Of a DNA stretch of 64,000 nucleotides, positions 8,712-59,784 are shown one piece after another (position 1 is the first letter of the stretch; the number at the start of each line of letters is the position of its first letter). A program made the position numbers and the translations under genes. The notes under the pieces are model-generated. The model made no database searches and was not told the origin of the DNA. It saw only the letters and a program-made list of their open reading frames with translations. This DNA is from a bacterium. GTDB taxonomy: Bacteria; Patescibacteriota; Minisyncoccia; Phycocordibacterales; UBA5272. Location of the stretch: NCBI GenBank assembly GCA_023267635.1, contig JAHFMX010000006.1, positions 1,940 through 65,939 of the forward strand, in the 5' to 3' direction.

Positions 8712-8713
8712 TC

Positions 8714-9145: not shown

Positions 9146-9148
9146 TAC

Positions 9149-9373
9149 ATGGAAATTAAATTACCTGGCTTTATTTTGAGGTTGTATACTGAGCTTGCTG
9201 ACTTGCAAGAAAAGCAAAGGAAGCTCTTAAACTTTGTGGTCTCCCATGAGTATGACAGCCTTTCTGAAATCGAGAGACAAATTTTGGATAAAAGAGTTGT
9301 GATAATTCAGGACTACATAAATAACATTGGTGAAAGCTTGTTTGTTTTCAGTAAGGAAAGGCATCATGCCTGA
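9149..9373 (+). CDS. small hypothetical protein
   Basis: ORF in structural block. Confidence 0.3.
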   Translation: MEIKLPGFILRLYTELADLQEKQRKLLNFVVSHEYDSLSEIERQILDKRVVIIQDYINNIGESLFVFSKERHHA

Positions 9374-9572
9374 TACCAGAACTGTAGCTTACCTACAGAT
9401 TGAGATAAAAGAGTCAGGGGCGCTTTCTGTGGCTGGTAGCATTGACAATGAAGCGTATGCTATTGCCGCACTTCAAGCGGCTATTGATGCTGTGCGTTCA
9501 CATCACAGCCATAAACAGACTCTTATTATCCCAGGGTACGACACAGATGTGAACAAGCTTAGAACTAACTAG
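9366..9572 (+). CDS. small hypothetical protein (start trimmed to internal ATG with GGAAAGG SD)
   Basis: ORF 9327-9572; the internal ATG at 9366 avoids a long overlap. Confidence 0.3.
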   Translation: MPDTRTVAYLQIEIKESGALSVAGSIDNEAYAIAALQAAIDAVRSHHSHKQTLIIPGYDTDVNKLRTN

Positions 9573-9581
9573 GTAAGCTAA

Positions 9582-10778: not shown

Positions 10779-11776
10779 TGCAGTGGAGGGGTAAAGAACT
10801 TGGCTCTCAGGAAATGAAACCGGTTACATTTAAACTTTATGGTGATCCTGGGGTTGCTTCAAAGTATATGGATAAAGGACGTTTTCATTTAGGCGAACTT
10901 AAACTAAGGATGCAGCTTAATAGCAATTTGACATGGGGAGAGCAAAGAATAGATGTTGTTGATGGGACGATAATACATGTCATGACAAATAGAAATGGGT
11001 TATCAGATATTGATGAAATTACTATAGATGTTACAGCACTAGCTGATAAAACACCAAAAGAGAAGATATGTAAAGGCTTCATAGCTATGGTCAACGCAGT
11101 TAACTTTAACAGTGTTAACACACAGCTTAATGTACAGGGTCCTGATGACACTACACACACTTTTTTACATACAACGTATACCCCAGCAGCACAATTTGTC
11201 TACTTGGAAAATGCTGTTCCCGGCATTATACCTAATACTTTTGATGATACTGATGATCCTGAAGTTGGTGGGTACAAGAGAATACTGTATGGAGAACTTT
11301 CTACAGATTCAGTAGACTATAAGTATGCACCATTACTAACTTTTCGTAATTCCAGGCAGAATATAGCTGTGTGCAGGGGCATACCAGTTTATAATGGATC
11401 ATCTATTACTGTAACTTATTCTGTAAATTTTGAAGGCTTTATTGCGGTAGTTCCAGGAAGTATAACATATAATTTTATAGACCCTGAACTTTCTGGTAGA
11501 GACCCTGATTTATCAGGGCCTAATAACACAGTTTCAAGGGCTTTTCATAACTTCACAGCAACAGCTAGTGTGCCAAAAGGTGACTATGTACTACAAGCTG
11601 CTGGTAAAGTTGATGTTCTTTTGATTTGTGATAAAGGGTTAGAAAAAGCACAGTTTACTTTTTCTGATGTGAACACTATTTTTTATTCTCAGGAAATGGT
11701 AGTTACTGTTGGTAAAAAATTTAAGAATGTATCAGAGATAGTTAAAGTCAGAGACTTAACTACATTAATAAGCTAG
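10778..11776 (+). CDS. hypothetical virion/tail protein
   Basis: 332-aa ORF, ATGA-coupled to upstream gene. Confidence 0.45.
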   Translation: MQWRGKELGSQEMKPVTFKLYGDPGVASKYMDKGRFHLGELKLRMQLNSNLTWGEQRIDVVDGTIIHVMTNRNGLSDIDEITIDVTALADKTPKEKICKGFIAMVNAVNFNSVNTQLNVQGPDDTTHTFLHTTYTPAAQFVYLENAVPGIIPNTFDDTDDPEVGGYKRILYGELSTDSVDYKYAPLLTFRNSRQNIAVCRGIPVYNGSSITVTYSVNFEGFIAVVPGSITYNFIDPELSGRDPDLSGPNNTVSRAFHNFTATASVPKGDYVLQAAGKVDVLLICDKGLEKAQFTFSDVNTIFYSQEMVVTVGKKFKNVSEIVKVRDLTTLIS

Positions 11777-11786
11777 GAGTAAAAAA

Positions 11787-13712
11787 ATGGGCTCAATAAC
11801 GTTTTTTAAGCCACCACAAGATGGAACTCTTGGTAATTGGCCTAATTGGTATCCGGATAGTTCAGGGATAAAGACCTACACAGAAGACAGGTTCGATAAA
11901 GCCATTGCTTACAGAGACGTTGTTTTAAACAACCTCTATTCAAAACTGGCTGACTTGAATGATGATCTGCTTGCTTTACAGCAATCTCCTGGTGCTACTG
12001 CCAACATAGACTTGGCTGTGCTTGACACACTAAATGCTACGTTCGAGAAGCAGGTAGCTCCGGTTAAACCCACTATATCAGTGGCATTCCCTGATGCCCC
12101 GGCAGATGCCGTACTTGGTACTGTGTCACCTTTTGTCCTTGAGCCAGTACCCGTGTTGACAAGGGCTGAGCCTATTGCTAAAGAGATAGCTCCCCCATCT
12201 AAGTTCACTAAAGTTGCCCCTACTATGGAAGACCTTCCTGTACGTGGTTTCCCTGCTACCCCTACATACACACTACCCACAGTGCCACTAGCTAGAGCAT
12301 TAGTTCTACCAAGTGATCCAGTAATTGATGACGTGCAGTTCTTAGGTGTTACACCCGACAGACTTGGTACTCCAACACCCTACACTTTCACCTTCACTGA
12401 CCAGGATTATGAGTCAGCACTTAGCACTCAGTTGAAAAGCACACTGCTTGATCTGGTTCTTAACTTCAGACAGACAGGTCTCGGTGATACCATACTCAAT
12501 CAAAAATGGGATCAGGGGCGTGAACGCACTAACGCCGTGATGCAAGGAGCTATCTACAACATTTCTCGCTTATTCGCCAGTGCCGGGTGGGACTTGGATA
12601 CTGGCTCCGAAGCAGAACTCATTATGCAGGCTATGGGTGCCAAAGAAGAGCAAGATATACTGGAGTCAAGAAATATTCAGGTATCAGAAGCAACACTCAT
12701 ACAAAACAACTTCCAGTTTAGCTTCACTCAAGCCTTAGCATTAGAAGGTCAATGGCTCTCACATCATGATACCCAGCAACAAAGGGCACTGGATGCAGCC
12801 AAAGCTGTACTTGATGCTTCAGTCCAATATGGAAACTTACTAGTGGCTTACCTTCAGGCTGACGTAGCTTTGTACACAGCTAATGCTACAGTCTTCGCTG
12901 AAAGGATCAAAGCTTCTTTGAACAAATTGGAAATTTACCGGAGCAAGCTGGAAGGTCTTAAGCTCATTAGTGAGCTTAATCAACAAGACATTGACCGTTA
13001 CAAAAGTCAGATCGAGGCAATTGTAGCTGTCTTTGGTCTCTACAAAGATCAACTGGAAGGTGAGAAGATTAAGATTGAGGCTGATGGCTTGAAGGTTCAA
13101 CAATTCCAGGGTAGGATTTCTGCTTTCGCAGAAGAGCGCCAAGCTAAGGCTTTAGAATATGAAGGCTTCAAAAGTGAATGGGGTGCTGAAGAAACCAAGG
13201 CCAGAGTCTTCCAGTCCATTGTTGACTCATTCAAAGCGAAAGCTGATGTGATGAAATCTGTCAATGAGTCTAAACTTCAGAAGATGGATGCAGACATTAA
13301 GCTTAACTTTGATGTACCACTGGACATTCTTGACAAGAAGACAAGTGTTTACAAGGCTAAGATTGATGCTAAACGCTCAGAGATCGGGGCAATCACAGAC
13401 CTTTACAAAACGGATGCTGATGTTTTTGGGACACTTACCAGTGCAGAAAGTACACGTGTCACTTCTGAATTGAAGTCTGTAGAGCTTAAGCTTGATGGTC
13501 AGGTGAAAAAAGTGACAACTGAGTTGGAAGCATTTAAAATTAACTTAGGTAATATATTATCACAGAAAGAATTGCTAATTTCTGGAGAAGAAAAGGAAGC
13601 TGCTCTCTTGGCTCAAGTAGCGTCCAGCATAACCGGATCAGTAAGTCATTCATGTGGTATCAGTGGTTCTTCTTCTTACCCGAATGCAGAACCAATACTT
13701 GTAACAACTTAG
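11787..13712 (+). CDS. putative internal virion / ejection protein, C-terminal half coiled-coil
   Basis: 641 aa; the long K/E/L-rich heptad region after residue ~330 is seen in the sequence. The internal-virion/ejection role is inferred only from position upstream of the giant ORF (order resembles podovirus internal core gene sets). Confidence 0.4.
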   Translation: MGSITFFKPPQDGTLGNWPNWYPDSSGIKTYTEDRFDKAIAYRDVVLNNLYSKLADLNDDLLALQQSPGATANIDLAVLDTLNATFEKQVAPVKPTISVAFPDAPADAVLGTVSPFVLEPVPVLTRAEPIAKEIAPPSKFTKVAPTMEDLPVRGFPATPTYTLPTVPLARALVLPSDPVIDDVQFLGVTPDRLGTPTPYTFTFTDQDYESALSTQLKSTLLDLVLNFRQTGLGDTILNQKWDQGRERTNAVMQGAIYNISRLFASAGWDLDTGSEAELIMQAMGAKEEQDILESRNIQVSEATLIQNNFQFSFTQALALEGQWLSHHDTQQQRALDAAKAVLDASVQYGNLLVAYLQADVALYTANATVFAERIKASLNKLEIYRSKLEGLKLISELNQQDIDRYKSQIEAIVAVFGLYKDQLEGEKIKIEADGLKVQQFQGRISAFAEERQAKALEYEGFKSEWGAEETKARVFQSIVDSFKAKADVMKSVNESKLQKMDADIKLNFDVPLDILDKKTSVYKAKIDAKRSEIGAITDLYKTDADVFGTLTSAESTRVTSELKSVELKLDGQVKKVTTELEAFKINLGNILSQKELLISGEEKEAALLAQVASSITGSVSHSCGISGSSSYPNAEPILVTT

Positions 13713-13721
13713 GAGTAAATC

Positions 13722-15350
13722 ATGCTTAGTGAATTAAATAGAATGAGGGGTGACATCCTTGGTGTAGCCGGAGTTCCCGGAGGTTTAAATGCCTTGAGGG
13801 AGGACTTACTCACACCATCTTTCGCTAAAGGCGGCATGATACCCTACAAGGATGGTGGCATGATAGTGGGGGAAGGCACACCAACGTCGGATAGTATTTC
13901 TGCTGAGCTCCCACCCGGCGCATTTATTGTATCTGCTAAGATGCTCAAAATGTTTGGCCAGCCTTTGTTTGATTATATCCTGTCTTTAGGTGAGACAGCT
14001 GCGGAAGACACTGGAGAAGGTCAAGAAGAGGCACCTGTTAAAGTCTCACAAGGTGAACTCTACATACCACCGGAAGCAGCCAAAGCTTTTGGCCTGGACA
14101 AGCTACAAGGCATGGCTGATGCAGCTAATGGTAAGGCTCCTATGCTAGGAGAGAATGCAGAAATGATGCCTGATCAGGAAAGTATGCCTGAAGGTTCAAT
14201 GGAGCCTCAAAAGTTTTCTGATGCAGGTGTTGTCAAGAAGAAAGATGATGATTACCTAGGCATACCGGAAGCCGGCAGGAATGCTGCAAAAGCTGTAATA
14301 GGAGAGAAGGGCTATAATGCTGTTACGGGTGCAGTCAACTCAGGTGAAGCTGCTCTAGGTGCAGGTGCAACTGCTTTGAAGGACTCAGCTGTTTCTGGGA
14401 CTCAAAGAATTGGTAATGCTTTTCAAGGTAATCAACAGGGCTATGGCCTTTTGGATGTCCCCGGTAAGATTTTTAGCAGACCTGTTGATCAGGTTACTGC
14501 ACCACAAACAGCAGCTACCCCTTTGACTAAGACTCCTGCTACAGCGCCTACCACACCCCCTATCGCTGCAACTCCTACAGTAACGGCTAAACCACCACAG
14601 ACTACAGTACCTTCTCAATCCACTACATCTTCACAACCTGGCAGGTCTCAAGTTGACATAGCTGATGCAGCCACAGCAGCACTAGGTGTACAAAATCAAC
14701 AACGTTGGGAGGCTCAGGATGCCCAAGCTGCACAGGTAAAAGCTAATCAGGATAAGACACAGCAAGCTAAAGATGACGCTGACTTCCGCAGAAGACAAGA
14801 CCAGTACTTTGACACCTTGTACAAAGAGCAAGGTGCAATCGGTAATGCCTTGAATAATGGTATTCCGGTCGAGGCAATACCTAAGAAATCAGCTGGTGCT
14901 GAGTATGCTTTGGGGGATCGTGGACAAACTTTACAAAACCAACTTGGTAACAGGCAGTCTGATGTTGCTGAACAGAACAGCATAAGATCAAATGCCCAAG
15001 AAGATAGAAGAACAGAAGCACTTAAAGGATACTACGGCGGGCATAGTGACACACCAAAAGTGGGAGAAAATAAATTCTCAAGGGATGAAAATGGTAATAT
15101 TTACCCTACTTCAGGCCCAGTGGCTGACCAAAAGTATGCTCAGGAAGCTCCTGCAAGGGCACACAAATTCATAGCTGAAAACTTGTTTAGTGACCCTTTG
15201 TCAATAGACCCCTCTGATCCTGAGATAAATAACCCAACTACCAGAAGTTTCATTCAGCAGTTACTAAGCACTAACCCTGATAAGGCTAATGAGCTCTTCA
15301 GTAACCCAGCTGTTAAGGCACACTTTTCTAAATTCGTACCAGCACAATAA
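13722..15350 (+). CDS. putative internal virion protein with low-complexity Pro/Thr/Gln-rich linker
   Basis: 542 aa; segment TAPQTAATPLTKTPATAPTTPPIAATPTVTAKPPQTT; adjacent to giant ORF. Confidence 0.4.
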   Translation: MLSELNRMRGDILGVAGVPGGLNALREDLLTPSFAKGGMIPYKDGGMIVGEGTPTSDSISAELPPGAFIVSAKMLKMFGQPLFDYILSLGETAAEDTGEGQEEAPVKVSQGELYIPPEAAKAFGLDKLQGMADAANGKAPMLGENAEMMPDQESMPEGSMEPQKFSDAGVVKKKDDDYLGIPEAGRNAAKAVIGEKGYNAVTGAVNSGEAALGAGATALKDSAVSGTQRIGNAFQGNQQGYGLLDVPGKIFSRPVDQVTAPQTAATPLTKTPATAPTTPPIAATPTVTAKPPQTTVPSQSTTSSQPGRSQVDIADAATAALGVQNQQRWEAQDAQAAQVKANQDKTQQAKDDADFRRRQDQYFDTLYKEQGAIGNALNNGIPVEAIPKKSAGAEYALGDRGQTLQNQLGNRQSDVAEQNSIRSNAQEDRRTEALKGYYGGHSDTPKVGENKFSRDENGNIYPTSGPVADQKYAQEAPARAHKFIAENLFSDPLSIDPSDPEINNPTTRSFIQQLLSTNPDKANELFSNPAVKAHFSKFVPAQ

Positions 15351-15355
15351 ACGAC

Positions 15356-18300
15356 ATGGCTAACTTAATTGGGCAGCAAGCTAGAGTAAAACCTTCAGAT
15401 GATCAGGATTTTTTAGGTGCCATAAATAGTTATGGGGGGGCATCAAGCACTTCTGCTACTACTCAGAAGAACCCTGATCAGGAATTCACTGACACCATAA
15501 ATAGCTATGGGGATCAGACAGGAACTCTGGGTGCCTATGGGCAGACTTTTGTTCAAGCTGCTAAAGGCGTACCAGGTTTTATTGGACAAGCAATAGAAGG
15601 AGGTACTCCATTTGACCAAGAAAATGGTGTTGATCAAATAGTAAAAGACACTCAAAAATCTAATGAAGAATTTGCTAGTGGCTCTGATGCAGAACAGCCA
15701 GTTCTTGGTGGTCTTGCAAAAGTAAAAGATATAAAAGGGTCAGCTGGAAGTTTGACCAGCTCCCTAGCAACTATGGCACCAACGGTTATAGGGGGCTTGA
15801 TTGGTGGTGCTTTAGGTGGTCCAGCAGCACCATTGACAGCAACAGCAGGTGCTACTATTGGGGGGCTTATAGGTGGGGGTCTAGGCTATCTAGGCATGTC
15901 CAGACAATCAGAGAATCAACTAATACGTGATGTTGTTGACAAAGAAGATCAAACAAGGTCAGCTCAAGGTAAACCATTACTAAATCAAGATGAAAAAGTA
16001 GCTAAGCAGAATGCTCTGCTTGAGTCGGGAGACCCACAACTACAAGGATTTGCAGAAGCTGCTGGGGAGACTATAGGTAACTTCCTTGAAATTGCAGCAG
16101 CCATGACACCTTTAGGCAAGCTTGGAAATGTCCTGAAAGCTGTTGGAGGCCCATTTTCTGGGGCTTTAGCTACAGCAGCCTTAAGAGGTACAGGGATACT
16201 AGCTGTTGAAAACATAGAAGAGCAAGCTACCAATCTTGTACAAAACCCTATTGCAAAAAGACAAGGGCTTCCTGAAGCCACTGCAGCTGAGACAGCAAAG
16301 CAAACAACATTAGCTACATTACCATTTGCAGCTCTTGGAATGGGGGTTGGTGGTTATCATGACTATAAATCAGCAAAAAAAGAAAAAGACTTCCAAGAGT
16401 ATTTAGCCGGTGCTTCGACTGAAGAACTACAAAGCAATATACAGACTTTACAAACTCCATCACCTGAAGATGATGAGCAAACAGCCCAGTATAAGCAAAG
16501 TCTAGCCCAAGCTTATACTGATGAACTTAACAGCAGAGGTACTACAGATGAAAATAACAACCAGGCAACAGGTGCAGAGCAACCTTCGGGAATCGGGGGA
16601 ATTGCTAATAGGCCAACTACACTTGATAGAGGAACTCCAAAGCAAGAACCAGGAACTAATGGACAAGGTGTCAATGTTACTGAACCTGCTGGAGCTTCAA
16701 GAAGAAGTGTGGAACCCATTCCACAAGAAGAAACCAGACAACCTGGACTTGATGAGCGTGGAAGTACTCTAAGTAACATATCTGATGAGGGCTTAAAAAA
16801 AGCCATAGAGCTTCTGAACAAACATGAAACTGATTCTCCAGAAGCCATTAAGAGTAAAGAAGATGCTATAACTTTTTACAGCAATGAACTTGAAAGAAGA
16901 AAACCACCCACCCAACCAATAGAGGAAACTCAAAATGAAAAACAAAAAATCACCAATGAAACCGATGCCAATGCCAATGAAGCAAATGCCGAAACCGGGC
17001 AAGGGCAAGAAGGGTTGCAAGTAATCCAACCAAACATAACTCAACCAAACATAACTGAAGAGGGTACAAACCTTGAGCAAGCAGGCACGGCAACGTCAAA
17101 GAATGCGGGACAAACGACAAAAGAGGAAACAGGAACTACCACAGTCAGTAGTACTGGTGAAGGAGGGCTAGTTAATGTTAATCAAGCAGCACCTGTCACA
17201 GGTATTGGAGCAGAACAAGCAAAGCAGGGAACAAGTTTTGGTCAACCAGGACTTGCTGAGTCTGTTGAAGCCCAGCAGAAAGAAGAAGTTGTGGGCTCAA
17301 TTCCTACAACTGCTTCCGTGGGAGCCACAGGTGCACAGAAGTCCAAAGCCCCAGTAGTAAGTGAGGGAGCTCCCCAACCTGCTACAGCAGGGGGACAAAC
17401 AACTCCTGACTACTCATACCTCTCTGACAAAGGCTTCACCCCTGAAGAAATACAACATGTAGGAGAAGCAAGTAAGACCCACAAAGACCTTAATGGCTGG
17501 GCACGAGGTAGATTTGGGTATGATCGGGTCAAGGGTGTCAACTTCACACAATCAATAGCACCTAATGCACCTGCCATTAATAATGAAGTGGATGCAGCAG
17601 CACATGAAGCAGCAGCTTCCCCATTAAATGATCTTGCACATCCTTCACAAGCTCAGATAGAAGCAGAAAACCCAAAACTAGGACATATTGAAAACTTTCA
17701 TGGCATGTCAATTTCAATAGAGAATCCTGAAGGCTCGGTTCGTTCTGGTGTTTCACTGGAGGGCAGACCTTGGCAAAATACTTTAAAAAACCATTATGGG
17801 TACATCAAAGGCACAGTGGGTAATGACAATGATCATGTGGATACTTTCATTGGGCCTGATGTTGGTTCTCAAAAAGCCTTCATAGTCAACCAAAACCATG
17901 TTACCAGAGGCATAGGAACTAATAGGTTTGATGAGCACAAAGTCATCCTTGGGGCAAAGACCAAGAAGCAAGCTCTTCAAATCTATCATGACAATTATGA
18001 AAAAGGTTGGCAAGGCATGGGAAGCATCACTCAAATGTCTGTTGGTCAATTAAAGGAGCAGCTAGGTACTGGGAAGTTAACGAAGCCTGTTTTGCAAGAG
18101 CAAGTTAGTCAACAGGAAACCAACCAATCTAATAAGCCTGAAGCTCCCACACCTAAAGGTTACATGAGCACTGGGGATGTTTTTTCAAGGTTAACATCAA
18201 AACAAAGAGCTTTTCATAAGTCAGGGAAACTTATTGTAGTTCCTACAGAGGAGCAACTTCCTGCTAGTCTAAGACCTAAAAAAGGTGAGGAATCCTCAAT

Positions 18301-21300
18301 ACCTGGGCTATATCACCCCAAAGAAGATAAGATTTATGTTGTTGCACACAACATCAAGCATGATGAGCTAAATGGCCTTCTCGCCCATGAGTTTTTACAT
18401 AGGGCTGTTCGTGTAGATAAAGTATTCAAAGGTAAGTTTGACAAATTTGATAGAGGTCTCACTGCTCGGTTTAATATGGCTGGTCGTGGTATTGGTTCAG
18501 ATATTGAGAAAGCAGCTTACAAGCATGTTGTTGATGCTGGTACCCCACAACACCAATTATTAGATGAGTATAAGTCCTACTTGGTGCAAGAGTATGCTAA
18601 GAACCCTGATAGCTTTGTTGGTGAAATTAAACGACTAATTGAGGAATTCATCGCTGCCATTAAAGTAGCCCTTGTTAAATCTGGACTTGATTCTGGATTC
18701 ATTGAAAAGCTAACACCTGCCGATCTGTATGAAATGAGCAAGTATGGAGCTGAGCAGGTTGAATCTACGCAACCACAAAAGAATAATGAAGCCCTTAAAT
18801 CATTCATTGGAGTTAAATCTCAGACTGCTCCAAAATATGAACTATCCACTGCCATGTCTGATATTGAAGCAGGAGAAAACCCTGAAGGGGTAAGGAAAGA
18901 CACTGGCTGGTTCAAAGGAGCTGACGAGCATTGGAGATTTGAGATTGATGACAGTGAAGCAAAGCTTGATGAAAAAGAAGTTAACACACTAAAGGGGTAC
19001 TACAAATTAGGCAGGCTAAGTGGGCTTGAAAAAATTCTTATACACCCCAAACTTTTCGCAGCTTATCCGCAGCTTAGAACTATTGGTATAAAGTTTGCAA
19101 AACTTCAGGAAGGTGTTGGTGGTGGGACAAGCCAAGATGGGAAATTCATAACTCTGAATGTTGACCTTAAAGACGATAAAATTTTATCAGTTCTTTTACA
19201 TGAAGCCCAGCATGCCGTTCAAATACATGAAGGCTGGGCTGGTGGGGGTTCCCCATCAACTTTCCAAAAGGAGTTTGTTGAAAGAGTGGAACTCTTAGAA
19301 AAAATTGTAAAAGATATAAATAATGAGCTATCTGTCCAAGCAGGCATAATGAATAAGTATGAAGTCAGAGGGTCTTACAGAAAATATACAGCTCCTGAAG
19401 GGTACACTGCTGCTGCAAAATATGATGAACTAATGCAGGAAAGATCAGATGCTGCGAAATCTTTAAGACGGATTGGTCTACTTAATGATGTAGCGGATAC
19501 CTCACGTAAAATATATTCTAGGTTATATGGTGAGATTGAGGCACGTAATGTGCAGAGAAGGATGGACTTTTCTGCACAAGAAAGGGAGAAGTTTTCTCCT
19601 GAAGGTACCCAAGATTACGCAAATAAAGACGCTGTTATTCTGTGGGCTAATGCTGATGTTAAGGGCTTATTATTTCCTGAAAATGAAGCAGACCTACTTT
19701 ACTCAAAGAAAACTAAAACTCAAGAAGGAATTAAATTAAATGAAAGAAAACCAACTGAAATCTCTACAAAAGAAACCTCAGAGTACACAAAAAGAAATAT
19801 CCTCAATACCAGCAGACTTGACAGAACTAGTCATGCAGAAAAAAGGTATTTCCAAGAAAGAAGCGGAAACTCTGCTGAGAGAGTTCGGGGCATAAAAGGA
19901 GTTTTCTCACCAGGAAAGAGCATAACTTCCGATTTTGAAAAAGCTGGAGTACCTAGCCCTGAGTACCATGAGTGGTTTAATGGTAATAAGATGGTTGAAA
20001 AGTACATGGGCATTATGACTAAAGCACAGAACACGAAGTTTGGTGCCGCAGTTTACATCTACCCAAAAGAAGATTATCGGAAAATGAGAATCTTTGTAAC
20101 ACCGGATGAGCTCTCAGGGTTTGCACTAAAGACTGACGGCGATATTGTTAGTGTAGTAAGCTTACCAGAAGCGCCTTCAGGTAGAGTTTACTCAATGATG
20201 GCGCTTGCTACGGAACTTGGTGGCACTAAGCTCGACGCTTTTGATACTGTTTTACCTGAAATTTATGCTGTGTCTGGTTTCAAAGAAGTTGGCCGGGTAA
20301 ACTGGAATGAAGACTACAAACCTGATAACTGGGATAAGGAGGTTTTCAGTAAGTTTAATAATGGGGAGCCAGATGTGGTCTTTATGGAGTATGACCCCAC
20401 CTATAGCCCTTTTAAAAGATCAGAGATAGAAGTCTCATTGTCTAATGCACAGCATACAATACCTGGTATTTCCAAACTCACTAAAGAATTTGTAGATGGA
20501 GATACCACAGCTGGTGTTCTGTTGAGGGAGCTCGGCCATGACTCTTTAGACTACCTGACTTCAGGTATAAAGTCAGTAAGCATAAGTTACAAAGACCCAA
20601 CTGGTGTGTATGGTGGAGACAAAGAGCCTTCACTTGGAGTAGCTGCATCCTTTGAAGAAAAAGATCGGAAAGAAGTTCTTAGAGCCTTAGCACAATTTGC
20701 TAAGAACTTCGACCAAGAACAATTTCATGTACTAGGCTCAGTAGGCACAAATACTGAAGTCATGCACGTCTATGATGATGGCTCTTACAATACCAAAGTT
20801 TATAGCTTCACTTTAAATAAGGTGCCAAGTGAAAAAGAAGTTAGCAAATTAATTAATAACTCAGGATTATATGGGCTAACCATTTCCGGTAGCACCCTTG
20901 AATCCTACTATGTGGAGCAAGATCAAAATGACGCAAATGAATACAAAGAGTGGACAAGTAAAATCGACAAGCTCCACGAAATTATCTCCGGCAGAAATCT
21001 CAAAAGCTATGGAGAAAAAGTGGCGAGACTCTGGGTCTACGGTAGCGGAAACAGAGCCATCAGCTATGGTCAAATTGAAGGCAAATTTCACCCATCGTAC
21101 ACCGACCAAGGGCAAAAAGCTTCTCAACGGGTAGCTTCAAGATTGATTGGCAGAGACGTTAAAGCCCCTTCAATACCTAAAACAGTTACTCCTGAACAGA
21201 AAGCACTACAAGCCTCAATTGCTCAAGCTTATGATGAAATGCGAATCAATGCCCTTGATCAGACGAACGTTATACGAGCCTACAAGGAGCTAGCTTCAGA

Positions 21301-24300
21301 AGTTCTTGATCAATACAATGCTATGCCCATAAAAGTTGAAGTCTGGTCTGGCCAAGGAGAGCCCTATTCTGCTAAAGGCAAAGTGTCTTCTGCTGAAATG
21401 AGGAAAGACATAGCTGAAAATAACCATCTTTACATCTATAAAACAGAAGCAGATTCTTTCGGGCCTCCTGGTGTCATCTATGATAGTCACCCTCTTCTTG
21501 AGCAGACTGGTATTAAGGACATCAATGGAGTTCCTTTGGTCTACAATGACCTGCTCCGGGCAGTGCATGACTATTATGCACATACGATGACTGATGCTTC
21601 TTTTGGTCCAATAGGTGAAGAAGCAGCCTGGAAAACCCACATGCTGATGACACGTAGCCCTTGGGCAAAGTGGGCATTGACATCGGAAACTCGCGGGCAG
21701 AATTCATGGGTTAACTTTAGGGCTTCAGTACAAGGGCTTCCATTGAATGAGAGGGGTTTTGCCATCCAGAAAGTTGATCTACTTCCAAAGAAGTTCCTCT
21801 ACACTGGAGATATTGTTGCTGATGCTAACTTGTCAGAATTGCCTGATGAGGGTGCTCTTTACTCAAAGAATCTTAATATGTCAAAAGAAGCAAGGATGCA
21901 GCGTGCTGTAGAACAGGGGTTTGATACTAGCAAGATTATGTACCACGGAACAGGTGGCAACATTAAAGCTTTCGACCTAAGCTTCGGTGGTCAAACTAGC
22001 CATAGTGAGGTTGGCAAGCTTGGTGTGTCACTTTCTGATGCCCCACTTGTAGCAAATGAGTTTGCAGGAATGGCGGGTAGAAGAGAATTACGCAATGCGA
22101 ATGTTATGCAGCTACTTTACAAGCCTGGTAAGCAGCTTGAGATTAATTTACCAGATGCAGGTCTAGTGGACACCATAAAGAAGGCCTGGGCTGATGGGTA
22201 TGATAGTGTTCGATTCAATAACTACAGAACTCCTTTAGGCTACAAAGGTAATGTGTACATTATCAGGAGACCAAGTGACATTCGTTCTATCTACGCTGCT
22301 TTCGATCCTTCTCAACATGGCAGTTCAGATATTCTTTACTCAAAGAATCTTGACCTGTCTCATAAGGCAAGAATGGAAAGAGCTGTTGAACAGGGCTTCA
22401 ACATCAATCATAAATTCGTTCATGTGTCTCCTCATGCTTTGCCTACTGAATTAAGAAATGACAAAACCCTATATCTGAGTGATAACTTTAAATACGCAGA
22501 ACGCTATGCTAGCCCCAGTGCATCTTCAATGGGTGGAAAAACAGGAGACTACTACAGCAACTTAGCCCCAACAAGCACCCCCGTTTACATAAAAGAGAAG
22601 AATGTCTTTGATACTAGAAAACCAAAAGACCGTAAACTATTTAATGAGAAATTTTTAAACAAATATGGCAATGGCACACCACTACAAAAATCTGGGCTCC
22701 CAGATTGGGTAGAAGCAGAAGACTTTAGAGAGTTCTTTGAAGACAACAACCTTGACTATAATGGTGTTATTGTTGATGAAGGTGCTGACCCTAATGACAA
22801 AGGTGGTGTAACTAAAAGAGGTATTAGCTATGCTATGTTTGATCCTTCAGCAGTAAGATCAGTGCACGCAGCATTTGATCCTGCACAACAAGATAGCTCA
22901 GACATTCTTTATTCTAAGAAAGCCAAACCAGAACTTTACTCTGCTTTGGAAAGAGGCATTAACAATTCTCCAGATCGTATTTTCAATGCCCCGGCTTCTC
23001 AGGTTAAGTCATGGCTAAATAGCAATGCACCTAAACTTGGAATTAAATCCGATGAAATTTACTGGACTGGAATTAATGAGTACCTTGACTCTTTAGGTAA
23101 TACTAAGACCAGCAAGCAAAGTGTTCTGGAATTTATAAGTAAGAATAAAGTTAATCCGATTGATAAAATTCTTGGTGTGGAGTCAAAAGACCTTAATGAT
23201 ATTAGATTAGAAATTAATGATCTTGAAAATGAGATTGATGTACTGGAGCATAATTACCCAGGGTCTAGTGGAAATGAAGTCTATGAAGAAGATGAAGATG
23301 GTAATGAGGTCTATGCTGATAGTGACTACGTGCAGGAACTTAGGGATGAGCACGAGAAGATTATAGATGAAAAGACAAAAGAACTTGACAGATTAAAAGA
23401 AGATGAAGAAGAACTTGCAGAAGAGTCTGAAGGCAAGCATTCTGGTGATCGGTTAAACTTACCTAATGGTAGAGATTATAGGGAGCTGGTTGTAACAATA
23501 CCTGGCATTAGGAAATTTAATGAAGAAGATGCCACACACTTTGGGGATGTTGGTGAGGGTACACAAATTTCATGGATTCGATATGACTCAAGAACTGATG
23601 CTAATGGAGAGTCTTCTTTATTCCTAGAAGAGGTACAAAGTCAACGTGGAGCGGAGGGCAGAACTAAGGGCTTCGGTGACTATGATGTAGTAAAAGCACA
23701 TGAAATATCAAAAAAGCTTCATTCTATAGCACTTAAAGAAATCAATCTTGAGAGTGAATTAGAGAATAATGGAGGTACACTTAGTCCTGAAAAATGGAAA
23801 GAGCTAGAATCTTTAAAAGAAGAGCATGACTTATTAATTGCTGAACAGAAAAAAGAAGAGTCTAAGAGAACGCTGGTACCACCTGCACCCTTTATAACTG
23901 ACAGTAAGAACAAAGCTACTAACACCTACATATCACTGCTTCTAAAAAAGGCAGTCATACAGGCAATAAATAATGGGCACTCCTCTGTAAGCTGGACTAC
24001 CGGAGATCAACAAGCAGATCGTTATGATCTTAGTAAAATGGTATTAGCTATTAGGTACAATCATTTAGGAGACTTAGTTACTACTAAAGTTGATGATAGC
24101 GTGTGGCAGACAATAGCTACTGGAGTACCAGAAAATAAAATAGCTGACTACATTGGGAAAGAAGCAGCAGAAAAGTTGCTAAGTCAAGATAAGGATGTCT
24201 ATGGGCATAGAACTATTACAGGTAATGACTTAAAAGTAGGTGGTGTATGGACTGGGGATATGTATGGGGATGCTCGGGGTTTAAATGCGCAAGGCAAACC

Positions 24301-27300
24301 TTCATTGATAACTCAGGCTGCTTCAGAAATTTCACGTAAGTTCGGTGGTAGGATAGGGGCTATAAGTATCCCAGGCCTAAGATATAGGAGCGAATTTGGC
24401 AATCCATCAATAACACCAGAATTAGAACAGCCGGCTTTGATTATTACTCCTGAAATGCGAGAAAAAGTTCTTGCTGAAGATTTGCCTTTGTTCTCACGTA
24501 GAGCTACATTTACACAGACAGTACAAAATCAGTTTCAAAAAGTAAAGCACTTCGCTACCGGCTTCGATCAAGGTATAAGTACACTTGCTGATATGCGCTC
24601 TGTGCTTAGCACTGGTCACATGCCAACTAAGCACATAGATAAACAAAGTATCCTGGATAAGGTTGCTACATACTTAGTCGATTCTTCAAGACCTTTTGAT
24701 GTCTGGACAAGAAGGCTTCCTAACACTGTTAAAGCAGCTCAATTAGTACTCTCAAAAGACCTAGCTAAACGTAGAACCGCTGTCATGAGTAAAGAAGCTC
24801 TTGATACTTATTTGCGGCCTCTATCAAAAGTAATTAAGAAAATAGCTTCCGATATTGGCATGGATCATTGGGCTGCTCAGTCAATGGCGGGGTACTGGAT
24901 GTCAATGAGGTATGCCATAGAAAAGAATCAAGACTTCATTAGACAAGACAAAGAAGCTTATGAGCAAGCAATCACTAACCTAATGTCTAATCCAACTAAT
25001 GCAAGCCTAGTGAAGCTGGTAAACAAGGCTGCTGATAAGCAAGCTGCCAGGATTGCTGCCATCAATGAGCAAAGAGAAATCGACCCTAATAATGAAACAT
25101 TACAAGCAGGCTTGGCCGGCGGTTACAATGACTTCACAGCTACTAAGCTTATGAATGAAATCGAGTCCAAGATACCAAGAGCTTACCTGGAAGAAGCTGC
25201 ACAGCATATATACGACATGATGAAGTGGAAGACAGAACGAGATTTGAAAAACGGTAAGGTTACACAGGAGCAAGTAGATAGTTGGTTCAACTCACCCTTC
25301 TATGTACCATTAACCGGTGATCCAAGTGTAGACGAGTCAGAAGATAGCTTGTTCAACCCAGGCGGCATAAACCAAGCCAAAGATAAGTCAGCTGTAGGAC
25401 GTAAAGGCAGTCTGGCACAGAGCGGTATTGATGCGGCGACCGAACAAGTAGAGAAGTCAGCTAAGTACCACGGTTGGGTAGACTTCAAGAACAGACTGGT
25501 CGAAACTTATGATGAGCTTATTGCTGAGGAAATGGCACAGGGTGCTAGTAAACAAGAGGCCAAGGATAATGTAGAACGTGAGTATGGAATAACCAAGACT
25601 CCTGAAACAAGAGTCGTTGGTACAGATCAAGGTGCTTTGCTACTTCCTTCACAGAACCCCACAGGCATAACTGTTCGCAAGAACGGGGAATCTAATGTCT
25701 ATGATCTCCATAATCAGGAAGCAGTAGATGCTTTGAAGAGCGTGAATAAAGAAGATGTTCCTAGCATACTTCGTCCTGTAGCCAACTTTACCAGAACTTA
25801 TGCACGCTTCGTTACTCAGCTATTACCCGGTTTTGGTCCGGTTAACGCTATACGTGATACATGGGAACGGTCAGAAAATATCCGTACACGGGTCTTAGAA
25901 GAGTATCCTGATCTAAATATGGATCAAGTTGCAAGAGACGCTATTAAAACCGCAGCAGACCCCAGGCTAATACGGAAGATAGCCGGTGTTATGCTAGAGA
26001 ATAGTTCTCTAAGCTCTAAGTTCCCTATTAATGAAGATGACCCAGACATCAAAACCTTAAGAGCTTTGATTGAGGAAGGTGGTGCTTCCACGGTAGGTGA
26101 CTACCTTGCTACTTCAGGCAGAGACCTTGCTAAGCAAATGAAAGATTCCCTGAAGCTCTCTACAGAAGCCTGGAACCTGGTGTCAGCCTGGAATAACTCC
26201 TTCGAGTTGGTTTCATCCTTATCAATCTTCAAGGCACTTACCAGCGCAGGGGTTAACAACAAGACTGCTGCAGCCACAACCCTTAACTTAATGAACTTTG
26301 GTAAGCAGGGCACTATGATAGGCCCCCTGAAAGCTCTATATACCTTCGTCAACCCCACAGTACAGGGGGGTCATCAGCTCTTACAGACGCTGACTACACG
26401 AAAGGGGCAAGCCAGGGCAGTTGCATACACTTTGGCTGGTATTGCCCTCTATGGCATGCTACGTGCCTGGGATGGAGACGACGACGATCTTGGTGAAAAC
26501 AAGATGGACAACCAAGGTATGTTCATTTCAGAACGTAACATCCTGATACCTTATGGTGATGGAAACTACGTGAAAGTGCCTGTAGGCTTTGGTCTTCCTC
26601 AGCTTACCTGGTCTGCTGCTGTTAACCTTGATAAATGGATGTTTGGTAAACAGAAAGGTGAAGACACCGTGGCTGGTATCTTGAAGTCTACAGCTAGAAA
26701 CTTCGCCCCGGTAGCTCCCAGTGAAACCAACATTTCACAGCATCCTATTTACTGGATGGCTCAAACGTTCTCACCACAAATAGCTAAGCCTTTAGTGAAT
26801 GTAGGCTTGAATATCAACACCTTTGGTTCTTCTCTAACCAATGCAGGGTATGGTAAAGAAGGCATTTCTGAAGCTCTACAGGGCAGGAAATCAACTGCCC
26901 AGGAATGGAAGGACATAGCAGTTGAGCTGGGCAAACTGGGTATTGATCTTTACCCGGAACAAGTAAGAGAAATAGTTCGGGGCTTCGCTGTTGGGCCTGT
27001 TAATGAAGTTATCAAAGCTACAATAGAAAATCCTAATAGAGAGAAATTAGGAAGAACAACAGTCAATAACCTGGTTGATAGATGGGTATCAGTACATGAC
27101 AGTGGGGCTTTGAAAGAGAGGCTGTATTACATGCACCGTGATGAGATGAATGCCGCTGCTAGAAAAGAATCACTTGGAACTGAGCTAAGTTCAAAAGAGA
27201 CAGGTTTAGCTAAGCTTAATAGATCAATAAGCAAGCTTGAAGGCTCAGCTAATGGCAAGCGAGCTGCTGCTGCTAAAGCTATTAAAGCTGGTAAGTCAGG

Positions 27301-27385
27301 ATCAGAGTATCTTGCACAAGCCAACAAAATAAGAGATAATGCAGAGCGCATAACACGCAATTACTACAATGCACATGTGGAATAA
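15356..27385 (+). CDS. giant 4009-aa multi-domain protein, candidate injected polyvalent/ejection protein with two zincin-like HExxH motifs
   Basis: Uninterrupted 12 kb ORF. N-terminal glycine-zipper hydrophobic segments (VIGGLIGGALGG...IGGLIGGGLGYLG). HEFLH at nt 18386-18400 and HEAQH at nt 19199-19213. Four copies of a D-I/L-LYSK linker motif. C-terminal hydrophobic stretches. Confidence 0.7.
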   Translation: MANLIGQQARVKPSDDQDFLGAINSYGGASSTSATTQKNPDQEFTDTINSYGDQTGTLGAYGQTFVQAAKGVPGFIGQAIEGGTPFDQENGVDQIVKDTQKSNEEFASGSDAEQPVLGGLAKVKDIKGSAGSLTSSLATMAPTVIGGLIGGALGGPAAPLTATAGATIGGLIGGGLGYLGMSRQSENQLIRDVVDKEDQTRSAQGKPLLNQDEKVAKQNALLESGDPQLQGFAEAAGETIGNFLEIAAAMTPLGKLGNVLKAVGGPFSGALATAALRGTGILAVENIEEQATNLVQNPIAKRQGLPEATAAETAKQTTLATLPFAALGMGVGGYHDYKSAKKEKDFQEYLAGASTEELQSNIQTLQTPSPEDDEQTAQYKQSLAQAYTDELNSRGTTDENNNQATGAEQPSGIGGIANRPTTLDRGTPKQEPGTNGQGVNVTEPAGASRRSVEPIPQEETRQPGLDERGSTLSNISDEGLKKAIELLNKHETDSPEAIKSKEDAITFYSNELERRKPPTQPIEETQNEKQKITNETDANANEANAETGQGQEGLQVIQPNITQPNITEEGTNLEQAGTATSKNAGQTTKEETGTTTVSSTGEGGLVNVNQAAPVTGIGAEQAKQGTSFGQPGLAESVEAQQKEEVVGSIPTTASVGATGAQKSKAPVVSEGAPQPATAGGQTTPDYSYLSDKGFTPEEIQHVGEASKTHKDLNGWARGRFGYDRVKGVNFTQSIAPNAPAINNEVDAAAHEAAASPLNDLAHPSQAQIEAENPKLGHIENFHGMSISIENPEGSVRSGVSLEGRPWQNTLKNHYGYIKGTVGNDNDHVDTFIGPDVGSQKAFIVNQNHVTRGIGTNRFDEHKVILGAKTKKQALQIYHDNYEKGWQGMGSITQMSVGQLKEQLGTGKLTKPVLQEQVSQQETNQSNKPEAPTPKGYMSTGDVFSRLTSKQRAFHKSGKLIVVPTEEQLPASLRPKKGEESSIPGLYHPKEDKIYVVAHNIKHDELNGLLAHEFLHRAVRVDKVFKGKFDKFDRGLTARFNMAGRGIGSDIEKAAYKHVVDAGTPQHQLLDEYKSYLVQEYAKNPDSFVGEIKRLIEEFIAAIKVALVKSGLDSGFIEKLTPADLYEMSKYGAEQVESTQPQKNNEALKSFIGVKSQTAPKYELSTAMSDIEAGENPEGVRKDTGWFKGADEHWRFEIDDSEAKLDEKEVNTLKGYYKLGRLSGLEKILIHPKLFAAYPQLRTIGIKFAKLQEGVGGGTSQDGKFITLNVDLKDDKILSVLLHEAQHAVQIHEGWAGGGSPSTFQKEFVERVELLEKIVKDINNELSVQAGIMNKYEVRGSYRKYTAPEGYTAAAKYDELMQERSDAAKSLRRIGLLNDVADTSRKIYSRLYGEIEARNVQRRMDFSAQEREKFSPEGTQDYANKDAVILWANADVKGLLFPENEADLLYSKKTKTQEGIKLNERKPTEISTKETSEYTKRNILNTSRLDRTSHAEKRYFQERSGNSAERVRGIKGVFSPGKSITSDFEKAGVPSPEYHEWFNGNKMVEKYMGIMTKAQNTKFGAAVYIYPKEDYRKMRIFVTPDELSGFALKTDGDIVSVVSLPEAPSGRVYSMMALATELGGTKLDAFDTVLPEIYAVSGFKEVGRVNWNEDYKPDNWDKEVFSKFNNGEPDVVFMEYDPTYSPFKRSEIEVSLSNAQHTIPGISKLTKEFVDGDTTAGVLLRELGHDSLDYLTSGIKSVSISYKDPTGVYGGDKEPSLGVAASFEEKDRKEVLRALAQFAKNFDQEQFHVLGSVGTNTEVMHVYDDGSYNTKVYSFTLNKVPSEKEVSKLINNSGLYGLTISGSTLESYYVEQDQNDANEYKEWTSKIDKLHEIISGRNLKSYGEKVARLWVYGSGNRAISYGQIEGKFHPSYTDQGQKASQRVASRLIGRDVKAPSIPKTVTPEQKALQASIAQAYDEMRINALDQTNVIRAYKELASEVLDQYNAMPIKVEVWSGQGEPYSAKGKVSSAEMRKDIAENNHLYIYKTEADSFGPPGVIYDSHPLLEQTGIKDINGVPLVYNDLLRAVHDYYAHTMTDASFGPIGEEAAWKTHMLMTRSPWAKWALTSETRGQNSWVNFRASVQGLPLNERGFAIQKVDLLPKKFLYTGDIVADANLSELPDEGALYSKNLNMSKEARMQRAVEQGFDTSKIMYHGTGGNIKAFDLSFGGQTSHSEVGKLGVSLSDAPLVANEFAGMAGRRELRNANVMQLLYKPGKQLEINLPDAGLVDTIKKAWADGYDSVRFNNYRTPLGYKGNVYIIRRPSDIRSIYAAFDPSQHGSSDILYSKNLDLSHKARMERAVEQGFNINHKFVHVSPHALPTELRNDKTLYLSDNFKYAERYASPSASSMGGKTGDYYSNLAPTSTPVYIKEKNVFDTRKPKDRKLFNEKFLNKYGNGTPLQKSGLPDWVEAEDFREFFEDNNLDYNGVIVDEGADPNDKGGVTKRGISYAMFDPSAVRSVHAAFDPAQQDSSDILYSKKAKPELYSALERGINNSPDRIFNAPASQVKSWLNSNAPKLGIKSDEIYWTGINEYLDSLGNTKTSKQSVLEFISKNKVNPIDKILGVESKDLNDIRLEINDLENEIDVLEHNYPGSSGNEVYEEDEDGNEVYADSDYVQELRDEHEKIIDEKTKELDRLKEDEEELAEESEGKHSGDRLNLPNGRDYRELVVTIPGIRKFNEEDATHFGDVGEGTQISWIRYDSRTDANGESSLFLEEVQSQRGAEGRTKGFGDYDVVKAHEISKKLHSIALKEINLESELENNGGTLSPEKWKELESLKEEHDLLIAEQKKEESKRTLVPPAPFITDSKNKATNTYISLLLKKAVIQAINNGHSSVSWTTGDQQADRYDLSKMVLAIRYNHLGDLVTTKVDDSVWQTIATGVPENKIADYIGKEAAEKLLSQDKDVYGHRTITGNDLKVGGVWTGDMYGDARGLNAQGKPSLITQAASEISRKFGGRIGAISIPGLRYRSEFGNPSITPELEQPALIITPEMREKVLAEDLPLFSRRATFTQTVQNQFQKVKHFATGFDQGISTLADMRSVLSTGHMPTKHIDKQSILDKVATYLVDSSRPFDVWTRRLPNTVKAAQLVLSKDLAKRRTAVMSKEALDTYLRPLSKVIKKIASDIGMDHWAAQSMAGYWMSMRYAIEKNQDFIRQDKEAYEQAITNLMSNPTNASLVKLVNKAADKQAARIAAINEQREIDPNNETLQAGLAGGYNDFTATKLMNEIESKIPRAYLEEAAQHIYDMMKWKTERDLKNGKVTQEQVDSWFNSPFYVPLTGDPSVDESEDSLFNPGGINQAKDKSAVGRKGSLAQSGIDAATEQVEKSAKYHGWVDFKNRLVETYDELIAEEMAQGASKQEAKDNVEREYGITKTPETRVVGTDQGALLLPSQNPTGITVRKNGESNVYDLHNQEAVDALKSVNKEDVPSILRPVANFTRTYARFVTQLLPGFGPVNAIRDTWERSENIRTRVLEEYPDLNMDQVARDAIKTAADPRLIRKIAGVMLENSSLSSKFPINEDDPDIKTLRALIEEGGASTVGDYLATSGRDLAKQMKDSLKLSTEAWNLVSAWNNSFELVSSLSIFKALTSAGVNNKTAAATTLNLMNFGKQGTMIGPLKALYTFVNPTVQGGHQLLQTLTTRKGQARAVAYTLAGIALYGMLRAWDGDDDDLGENKMDNQGMFISERNILIPYGDGNYVKVPVGFGLPQLTWSAAVNLDKWMFGKQKGEDTVAGILKSTARNFAPVAPSETNISQHPIYWMAQTFSPQIAKPLVNVGLNINTFGSSLTNAGYGKEGISEALQGRKSTAQEWKDIAVELGKLGIDLYPEQVREIVRGFAVGPVNEVIKATIENPNREKLGRTTVNNLVDRWVSVHDSGALKERLYYMHRDEMNAAARKESLGTELSSKETGLAKLNRSISKLEGSANGKRAAAAKAIKAGKSGSEYLAQANKIRDNAERITRNYYNAHVE

Positions 27386-27740
27386 TCTAAAGATGAGATA
27401 CAGTTACAGTTTTGATGAGGAAGTATATTTTGGTGATTTTGATGAGCTTGAAAAAGCAGCAAACTCTGGATTTAAGGAAAGGCCTGAAGTTGATAAATTA
27501 TGGGTTGGCGAACGACATGATCCAGAGCCACATGATTTTATATTACCCGAAAGCATACTTGAAAGCTTATTGTGCAATGCTTATGATGAATGTGGTGATT
27601 TGTGTGGAGATTGGCTGTCAGGCATACTTAAGGATTCTGAGAAGCTTAAAGAGCTGAAAACGCTTATTGGAGACTGGGTTCAAGCTAACGACCCACCGAA
27701 ATTTTGGGTTGTTACCCATCCAGTTTTATTTAAAAAATGA
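27369..27740 (+). CDS. hypothetical acidic protein
   Basis: ORF overlapping the end of the giant gene; true start may be the internal ATG at 27393. Confidence 0.3.
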   Translation: MHMWNNLKMRYSYSFDEEVYFGDFDELEKAANSGFKERPEVDKLWVGERHDPEPHDFILPESILESLLCNAYDECGDLCGDWLSGILKDSEKLKELKTLIGDWVQANDPPKFWVVTHPVLFKK

Positions 27741-59613: not shown

Positions 59614-59784
59614 ATGAATAAAGTAGAAGAAACTTTAAAACACCTGGTTCTTAGAGGCCCTACGAAAAGTAGAGTAAACCTGCATAAGAATGCTAATGGT
59701 AGTTTGGACAATGCGTACTCGATTGGAGTTAAGGACGGTAAAATACTTTTGGCTAGAGAACTATTGAAGGAACTTAATAAATGA
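59614..59784 (+). CDS. small ORF (56 aa) coupled to portal start
   Basis: ATGA overlap with 59781. Confidence 0.25.
   Translation: MNKVEETLKHLVLRGPTKSRVNLHKNANGSLDNAYSIGVKDGKILLARELLKELNK

Follow-up and report, generated by a model that had tools for sequence, protein, structure and literature searches.

The 64,000-nt window analyzed here (positions 1,940 to 65,939 of the forward strand of contig JAHFMX010000006.1, assembly GCA_023267635.1) represents most of a ~64-kb tailed-phage genome, and 18.8% of the window is taken up by a single open reading frame (ORF) encoding a protein of 4009 aa. We consider it likely that this giant is a polyvalent protein carried in the virion of a ~64-kb aquatic podophage, from which it would be ejected along with the DNA to deliver cargo enzymes to the host. 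An injected polyvalent protein had been proposed in an initial annotation, and that reading is supported by the presence of polyvalent Pfam families, the homology of the C-terminal module, a gene order shared with phage Epa33, and the existence of such a class in the literature (PMC5512222, PMC4819975). By all criteria that can be judged from sequence, the giant is both a polyvalent protein in the sense of Iyer et al. and a giant protein of the IVP-D (internal virion protein D) type found in the F116/Stx podophage group. We infer packaging into the virion, ejection, enzymatic activity, and autoprocessing, the first of these because its relative phi24B gp47 is present in virions and another, Epa33 gp62, is annotated as structural.

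The ORF occupies 15356..27385 on the + strand as one uninterrupted frame of 12,030 nt with an ATG start. It begins 5 nt past the stop codon of the preceding ORF, and its 3′ end overlaps the next ORF (27369-27740) by 17 nt. The ~12-kb frame and the two HExxH motifs described in the initial annotation lie exactly where they had been placed: HEFLH at aa 1011 (nt 18386-18400) and HEAQH at aa 1282 (nt 19199-19213), the latter followed by EGWAGGG, compared with 0.09 HExxH motifs expected from composition. To define module borders, homologues from three segment database searches and one exhaustive HMMER search were mapped back onto the giant; the set collected comprises 342 proteins and 624,303 aa (P0001-P0342). 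The Pfam families in the giant are InPase, LPD23, DUF6782, ART-PolyVal (two stretches), and LPD38, and the domain scan of segments that had been suggested as a check likewise returned several unrelated families (InPase, LPD23, zincin, ART-PolyVal, and LPD38). As in the class described by Iyer et al. in 2017, multiple unrelated effector domains are combined with LPD23 and LPD38 and with zincin motifs in a protein encoded at the virion locus of a portal-terminase phage. The overall architecture is one of separable modules between two conserved ends, a glycine-zipper domain and a ~950-aa helical LPD38 module, with variable cargo in between consisting of InPase, two zincins, a GNAT-candidate domain, an H-D-H-E-H domain, two ADP-ribosyltransferase (ART) domains, and a module that we call modX. 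In all, about 10 enzyme-like domains lie N-terminal to the conserved ejection module. Neither NCBIfam nor PADLOC matched the giant, the exact protein is absent from the assembly index, and the only solved relative found by PDB sequence search is the C-terminal InPase domain of the phage portal 9b41. None of the Pfam models that came out of the Iyer et al. 2017 study matches about one third of the protein, namely modX, the domains at aa 1510-1690 and aa 1933-2165, an orphan segment, and the N-terminal domain. The size of the giant is not exceptional, because relatives reach 4500-6800 aa.

The C-terminal module (aa 3062-4000, 24539..27355, +) links the giant to the internal virion proteins (IVP-D class) of F116-group and Stx podophages. 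It contains LPD38 at aa 3723-3883 (26522..27004, +; Pfam E 2.6e-18, 63.1-67.2 bits vs a cutoff of 27), and in all 25 of the 25 carriers collected it ends within a few residues of the C-terminus. Its relatives are 44-56% identical and occur in proteins of 1126-1681 aa whose N-terminal cargo differs, with Helicase_C in one and ART-PolyVal in others; on the contigs of close relatives, as in the window, the gene is the last of a structural block and immediately precedes a change of strand. Among deposited phages, the module is present in Pasteurella phage Pmp11, in more than 150 Stx and 933W-type phages, and in Burkholderia, Ralstonia, and Vibrio podophages with genomes of ~60 kb, and a pattern scan of IMG/VR returned no close relative. 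Alignment of the module profile by hhalign to VT2-Sakai orf71 (NP_050570, 2806 aa) gave a probability of 100 and an E of 1.2e-51 over 640 columns, and the tblastn match of the module falls inside the same protein at ~24% identity. An AlphaFold 2 model of aa 3046-4009 is almost all helix (mean predicted local distance difference test score 75.8). The C-terminal hydrophobic stretches that had been noted earlier are only weakly borne out: beyond aa 335 no hydrophobic 20-mer is free of charge, no convincing membrane segment is present, and the region is predicted to be helical.

Hardies et al. list NP_050570 as a whole as a homologue of IVP-D (T7 gp16) within the F116 tail-structure group (Table 2 of PMC4819975), and describe the giants of that group as fusions of an IVP-D part with a domain whose site of action must be the cytoplasm, as in N4 gp50. 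The protein phi24B gp47 (2811 aa; LPD5, LPD1, LPD38, and MuF-C peptidase) was detected in virions by proteomics and proposed to be an ejection protein (bioRxiv 10.64898/2026.04.10.717836); from its size and domain list it is the apparent counterpart of VT2-Sakai orf71. A 2198-aa protein of phage PTXU04 in which LPD38 is the only such domain was found by CRISPRi-ART knockdown to be needed for efficient infection (bioRxiv 10.1101/2023.09.18.558157). The C-module of the giant shares homology with a listed member, a syntenic position, and extensive alpha-helix with the IVP-D/F116 group, but not a direct similarity to gp16, and we assign it on these grounds as the putative F116/Stx-phage version of the large internal virion protein (IVP-D class).

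Gene order points in the same direction. Immediately upstream of the giant are two ORFs of 641 aa and 542 aa (11787..15350, +) with remote homologues in F116-group Pseudomonas phages, and together with the giant they form a three-gene block. Their homologues in Epa33 are gp59 (annotated "structural protein 4") and gp61, followed immediately by gp62 (3799 aa, "structural protein 5"). A fourth gene of the window, at 6633-7886, matches Epa33 gp55, such that the order gp55, gp59, gp61, gp62 is kept. Like the giant, Epa33 gp62 has zero cysteines, a Gly/Ala-rich N-terminus, and a second HExxH, and its LPD23-zincin module is 35% identical to that of the giant. The Epa33 gene order therefore supports the earlier suggestion that two probable internal-virion proteins precede the giant, and by analogy we regard the 641-aa and 542-aa ORFs as candidate partner internal-virion or ejection proteins.

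Cysteine is almost wholly avoided throughout the family. There is none among the 4009 residues of the giant, and across the 342 relatives the median is 0 and the mean 0.066%, as compared with ~1% in most other proteins of the window. The upstream 641-aa and 542-aa ORFs contain 1 and 0 cysteines, respectively, and Epa33 gp59, gp61, and gp62 all contain 0. The near-absence of cysteine fits a chain that crosses the periplasm unfolded, and it may be an adaptation to unfolded passage through that oxidizing compartment.

At the N-terminal end, a conserved domain (aa 37-340, 15464..16375, +) is homologous to the N-terminus of P0207 (3371 aa, E 1e-41) and to that of P0209 (4506 aa, E 1.6e-7), two other giants. 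The glycine-zipper character that had been attributed to this region holds at the level of motifs, with an uncharged Gly/Ala-rich stretch of 55 residues at aa 128-182 (nt 15737-15901) and 11 GxxxG motifs within aa 100-340; none of the Pfam glycine-zipper models matches the giant, and the only echo in the PDB was SlyB, at E 0.5. The domain is followed by a low-complexity linker rich in Q, E, T, G, and A (aa 341-760, 16376..17635, +), which has low entropy, no family match, and high AT skew, and is probably disordered. The AT skew is unusually high (0.17-0.28) at 14000-18000, an interval that overlaps both the linker and the end of the upstream ORF. The next module is a type I inorganic-pyrophosphatase-like InPase domain (aa 765-902, 17648..18061, +), which matches PF18823 with an E of 5.6e-44 and 149.7 bits against a cutoff of 26.8 and the C-terminal domain of the solved portal 9b41_L with an E of 7e-23. 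The conserved block IENPEGSVRSG...YGYIKGTVGNDNDHVDTFIGP singled out in the initial annotation is real and lies within this domain. Its acidic motifs ENPEG, DNDHVD, and FDEHK align with the 9b41 portal domain, and a DxDxxD motif is present at aa 824; the profile match and these acidic, putatively metal-binding residues place the domain in the InPase clade. The family phrog_10089, named "DarB-like antirestriction," matches only aa 162-925, which corresponds to the N-terminal and InPase regions.

The two HExxH motifs each fall within a conserved domain in which downstream glutamate motifs are also conserved, in agreement with the earlier description of both as zincin-type, and we assign both regions as predicted zincin-type metallopeptidase domains. 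The first (aa 924-1133, 18125..18754, +) contains HEFLH and belongs to a family of 14 homologues, all 14 of which keep HE(L/F/Y)xH(R) together with a downstream glutamate in an EE..AY motif (EY..Y/EE..AY). No Pfam model matches this domain, and it recurs in two LPD38 proteins (P0003 and P0005). The second is part of an LPD23-zincin module (aa 1137-1450, 18764..19705, +) characterized by HEAQH..EGWAGGG and GEIEARN. LPD23 itself is located at aa 1149-1204 (E 1.5e-17, 63.6 bits vs a Pfam cutoff of 27), and DUF6782, a putative metallopeptidase family, matches around HEAQH with 27.7 bits when the segment is searched and 24.5 bits in the whole protein, against a cutoff of 27. About 65 homologues of the module keep HExQHAxQ..EGF..GG and GE.EARN.

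The middle of the cargo is a mixture of recognizable and unannotated domains. Where the initial annotation had suggested a GNAT-like segment, at nt ~20000-20400, a widespread conserved domain does exist (aa 1510-1690, 19883..20425, +; family alignment, phrog_2563), with ~119 homologues of which none is labeled by Pfam at that region; it is a GNAT candidate. The domain itself has no Pfam match, a search of the PDB with the family profile found no GNAT and nothing meaningful, and hhalign against E. coli RimI was in register over motifs A-B at a nonsignificant E of 0.12. Alignment of the domain to modX was also not significant. According to Iyer et al., phage polyvalent proteins have a GNAT family neighboring ART domains (PMC5512222). 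The segment that follows (aa 1700-1930, 20453..21145, +) is an orphan, covered by 0 of the 342 collected proteins and without a phage tblastn match. It is succeeded by an H-D-H-E-H domain (aa 1933-2165, 21152..21850, +; phrog_3170) with the invariant residues R..HD...H, GE, H, and TRGQNS, from which we judge that it is possibly a metal-dependent enzyme; no match was found in Pfam or, by sequence or profile, in the PDB. Two tandem ART-PolyVal domains of the ADP-ribosyltransferase type (PF18760) occupy aa 2170-2330 and aa 2335-2520 (21863..22915, +). The Pfam match has an E of 3.4e-11 in two stretches, with 44.5 bits as a segment and 33.6 in the whole protein against a cutoff of 31.2, and the two copies are 31.6% identical to each other (E 9e-18) and contain the ART motifs YHGT/VHVS and G.S.S/LYLSD.

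Similar cargo is arranged differently in MW202675.1, the Manatee Spring phage, which has a related portal. At 7958-16620 of that genome, domains resembling those of the giant from InPase to p3170 are divided among four separate genes that come straight after the portal (a MuF-like position) and are not fused into one gene closing the tail block. There are therefore two different ways of attaching the same cargo to the virion.

The last cargo module, modX (aa 2520-3050, 22913..24505, +), comprises ~530 aa and is a widespread module of giant proteins. An exhaustive search of 1.84 billion cluster representatives retrieved 7015 proteins at E<=1e-3, 4057 of them at E<=1e-10, and nearly all carriers are giants of 2000-6800 aa. 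It has no Pfam, PHROG, or NCBIfam model, Pfam having been checked in the giant and in three relatives, and its C-terminal end is a conserved ...ITP.MR.K.L..G.PLFS tail. The predicted fold, with a beta-rich core that weakly resembles GNAT and long helical-hairpin insertions, suggests a GNAT-like core with insertions, but none of the fold matches is statistically significant; we treat this model-based resemblance as a lead.

A short motif marks several of the boundaries between modules. L[YF]S[KR][KRN] occurs five times in the giant, compared with 0.02 expected, each time at the C-terminal tail of a domain: at aa 1448 (19697-19711), aa 2168 (21857-21871), aa 2327 (22334-22348), aa 2518 (22907-22921), and aa 3045 (24488-24502), all on the + strand. 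In relatives, IRFS, LFSK, and KYSK stand at equivalent junctions and end unrelated domain families, and junction-type motifs are enriched about 5- to 10-fold across the 342 related proteins. The motifs may be structural tails or they may be protease sites, and we do not choose between the two.

Taken together, these features suggest how the giant might work. Its synthesis would occur late, along with that of the two upstream proteins, and the product would be packed into the capsid. On infection it would be expelled, largely unfolded, through the portal-tail channel, whereupon the C-terminal module, and perhaps the N-terminal domain too, would help to build or anchor a conduit spanning the envelope. 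The cargo would reach the cytoplasm with the leading DNA and there modify host proteins or nucleotides, either blunting defenses or aiding takeover of the cell. Individual enzymes may be freed through cleavage of the chain by the zincins at the L[YF]S[KR] junctions. In its most elaborate form, the proposal is that the giant is a self-processing effector polyprotein whose zincins, after ejection, cut at the recurrent tails of at least four unrelated domain families, that the family avoids cysteine so that the chain can be threaded unfolded through the tail and the oxidizing periplasm, and that modX is a new, very common GNAT-fold enzyme or coenzyme A-binding module belonging to phage ejection proteins; we regard this combination as doubtful.

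Several observations weigh against the reading of the giant as an ejected carrier of active enzymes. Neither ART copy shows an evident catalytic glutamate, the corresponding position being N in copy 1 and S in copy 2 of a shallow, gappy alignment, in a column at which some relatives carry E or D; some of the cargo may therefore be inactive. The duplicated ART domain has three of the five junction motifs in its conserved tail, and modX has one in its own; the motifs may be structural and not cleavage sites. Epa33 gp62 aligns with the giant only through the LPD23-zincin region, and its C-terminus did not match the C-module significantly by hhalign (E 0.36). The direct comparison of the C-module to T7 gp16 by hhalign was likewise not significant (E 0.11 over 56 columns), a profile search of the PDB with the module returned no gp16 and nothing meaningful, and Foldseek of its model against the PDB, including solved ejectosomes, gave a best E of 0.5, with the cyanophage A4 pre-ejectosome at E 2.1. 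For a connection to T7 we therefore rely on the literature, in which Hardies et al. connected the F116-group giants to gp16 through joined intermediate profiles (PMC4819975). The contigs with the closest C-module relatives have no other detectable genes in common with the phage of the window, and their gene context is therefore only an analogy; five contigs (L001-L005) considered as relatives of the phage were rejected as such, having no more in common with it than the C-module and a small number of cargo domains, and serve as independent examples of where the module is positioned. Pfam scans of the giant found no MuF-type head-targeting domain.

Alternatively, the giant could be a purely structural ejection or internal-core protein in which the enzyme-like domains are decayed relics or spacers, contributing no more than mass or length within the capsid or conduit and lacking any catalytic role in the cell. 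The missing ART glutamates, the 230-aa segment without homologues, and the 420 aa of low complexity are all compatible with such a protein, as is the fact that the conserved, essential part in relatives is the C-module. However, the acidic motifs of InPase are intact, as are both zincin HExxH+E signatures, which are conserved over dozens of homologues, and the invariant H, D, and E residues of the aa 1933-2165 domain are also conserved. Moreover, the shuffling of cargo domains among relatives involves whole units, an argument for selection on each domain, and we consider a purely structural role to be improbable. An anti-defense or takeover protein that is made after infection, acts in the cytoplasm without being packaged, and sits beside the tail genes by chance would accommodate both the DarB-like label of phrog_10089 over aa 162-925 and the lack of a MuF head-targeting domain. 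Such a protein would not be expected to be on the same strand as the virion genes and tightly coupled to its neighbors (the 5-nt gap upstream and 17-nt overlap downstream), to contain a C-module with a homologue that occurs in phi24B virions and is classified as an internal virion protein, or to have a syntenic counterpart in Epa33 annotated as structural, and a purely cytoplasmic enzyme would hardly account for the avoidance of cysteine across the family. We give this explanation rather little credence.

Two further explanations concern the identity and the integrity of the ORF. The giant has the same size class and position as N4 gp50, which transcribes early genes as a virion RNA polymerase, belongs to the same IVP-D family (Hardies et al., PMC4819975), and is counted as a polyvalent protein with zincin domains (Iyer et al., PMC5512222), and it might therefore be a polymerase of this type in disguise. 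The initial annotation had seen no RNA polymerase motifs, and indeed no polymerase family was found in Pfam, PHROGs, or NCBIfam and no solved polymerase was matched in the PDB; apart from the linker and one 230-aa orphan, neither of which is long enough to hold a polymerase, other domains account for all segments longer than 250 aa, which makes this possibility exceedingly slim. Fusion of at least two genes by an assembly or sequencing error is brought to mind by the equivalent gene of F116, which is split in two (PMC4819975), and by the similar domains in MW202675, which are spread over several genes. The frame is nonetheless uninterrupted over its 12,030 nt and devoid of cysteine throughout, both of its ends are individually homologous to both ends of P0209 (4506 aa), and relatives of 3000-6800 aa are common, and we hold an artifact to be very improbable. 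A polyvalent protein ejected from the virion thus remains the explanation we prefer.

Comparison of the giant to characterized systems helps to define what kind of protein it is. In the Stx/933W-type phages (VT2-Sakai orf71 and phi24B gp47), the C-terminal ~700 aa, LPD38 included, are homologous, the gene is also the last large one of the tail/virion block, and the protein also carries a zincin-type peptidase. Their cargo consists of LPD5, LPD1, and MuF-C peptidase, whereas here it is InPase, LPD23, two ARTs, modX, and others; the giant is 1200 aa longer, and identity is ~24%. In the F116 group, Epa33 gp62 and H66 gp60 are of similar size and occupy the same place in the collinear four-gene order, and Hardies et al. 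describe the giant of F116-group Pseudomonas phages as an IVP-D homologue with a cytoplasmic domain (PMC4819975). H66 gp60 has a methylase-like domain that is absent from the giant. The polyvalent proteins of Iyer et al. (PMC5512222) have the same multi-effector chain, with interspersed zincin metallopeptidase hubs, the phage-only domains InPase and LPD38, ART, and possibly GNAT. The N4 gp50 virion RNA polymerase (~3500 aa) is likewise a giant podophage ejection module with cytoplasmic cargo, zincins, and, according to the literature, an IVP-D-type C-terminus; it has a polymerase domain, whereas the predicted cargo here is one of modifying and hydrolytic enzymes. T7 gp16 (IVP-D, 1318 aa) also comes at the end of a run of internal-virion genes and is the largest of them, and it is extensively alpha-helical and ejected to span the envelope, but its lytic transglycosylase domain has no equivalent in the giant. 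The P1 protein DarB is a head-packaged anti-restriction protein, after which the PHROG matching aa 162-925 is named; no family match in Pfam corresponds to its methyltransferase and helicase domains. By domain content, the giant is neither an N4-type RNA polymerase nor DarB-like beyond the PHROG label.

The surrounding genes are those of a podophage. The + strand virion block contains a SU10-type adaptor (678-1403), the head-closure-like protein at 6633-7886, and other virion proteins, and the giant is its last member, just before the switch to a - strand replication block, in keeping with the earlier placement of the giant at the end of the virion module. The - strand block extends from ~28 kb to 46 kb and encodes a SNF2 helicase and a family A DNA polymerase; the next + strand block encodes a D5-type primase-helicase, terminase large subunit, endolysin, GDSL esterase-like protein, and portal. 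A portal-terminase system is thereby present (terminase 52821-54977, portal 59781-62213, and the adaptor). The portal shares 30-41% identity with its counterparts in Roseobacter, Pelagibacter, cyanobacterial, and Caulobacter podophages with genomes of 52-65 kb, and megablast found no nucleotide match to any deposited phage. Since there is no deposited nucleotide match and the portal relatives come from aquatic podophages, the source is therefore an uncultured aquatic podophage.

Other features of the window are recorded here in their own right. The coding strand and the GC skew both flip at ~28000 and ~46000, and the cumulative skew has its minimum near 46 kb, in the interval separating the - strand block from the D5-type primase-helicase gene (46506-49403), making this region a candidate replication origin region. 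The terminase large subunit (+) has matches to Pfam Intein_splicing, Hint, and PT-HINT at aa ~168-340, and its PHROG matches are split into two that flank this region, so an intein appears to interrupt the protein. Between endolysin and portal, a 633-aa ORF (55870-57771, +) contains a lysophospholipase L1/GDSL esterase-like region (phrog_8480, E 3.7e-39); a processed esterase is reported to decorate the capsid of phi24B, which shares the LPD38 giant-protein family (bioRxiv 10.64898/2026.04.10.717836). In the tail region, a cysteine-rich ORF of 771 aa (2329-4644, +; 13 Cys) has its best deposited match in the archaeal Methanosarcina virus MetMV (38.5% identity over ~600 aa, E 3e-98), with a Variovorax phage as the sole other match, and probably carries a shared receptor-binding or fiber domain. 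This ORF was considered as tubular tail protein B, a marker of the F116 group, and rejected; because it matches MetMV instead, placement in the F116 group rests on Epa33 synteny.

Polyvalent virion proteins are regarded as the opening move of a phage against host defenses, and very few have been tested. The kind of protein that the giant represents has already been described, and it leaves the current picture of how polyvalent proteins work unchanged; what is new is the particular combination of cargo and the fraction that lacks a curated family, with at least four of the ~10 cargo domains having no curated family model. Among these, modX is a very large unannotated module that deserves definition as a family. 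The giant is a clean, uninterrupted example in which an ejection module with experimentally supported relatives is coupled to an unusually long cargo, and it offers as targets for such work two zincins, five candidate cleavage junctions, an InPase, and two ART copies.

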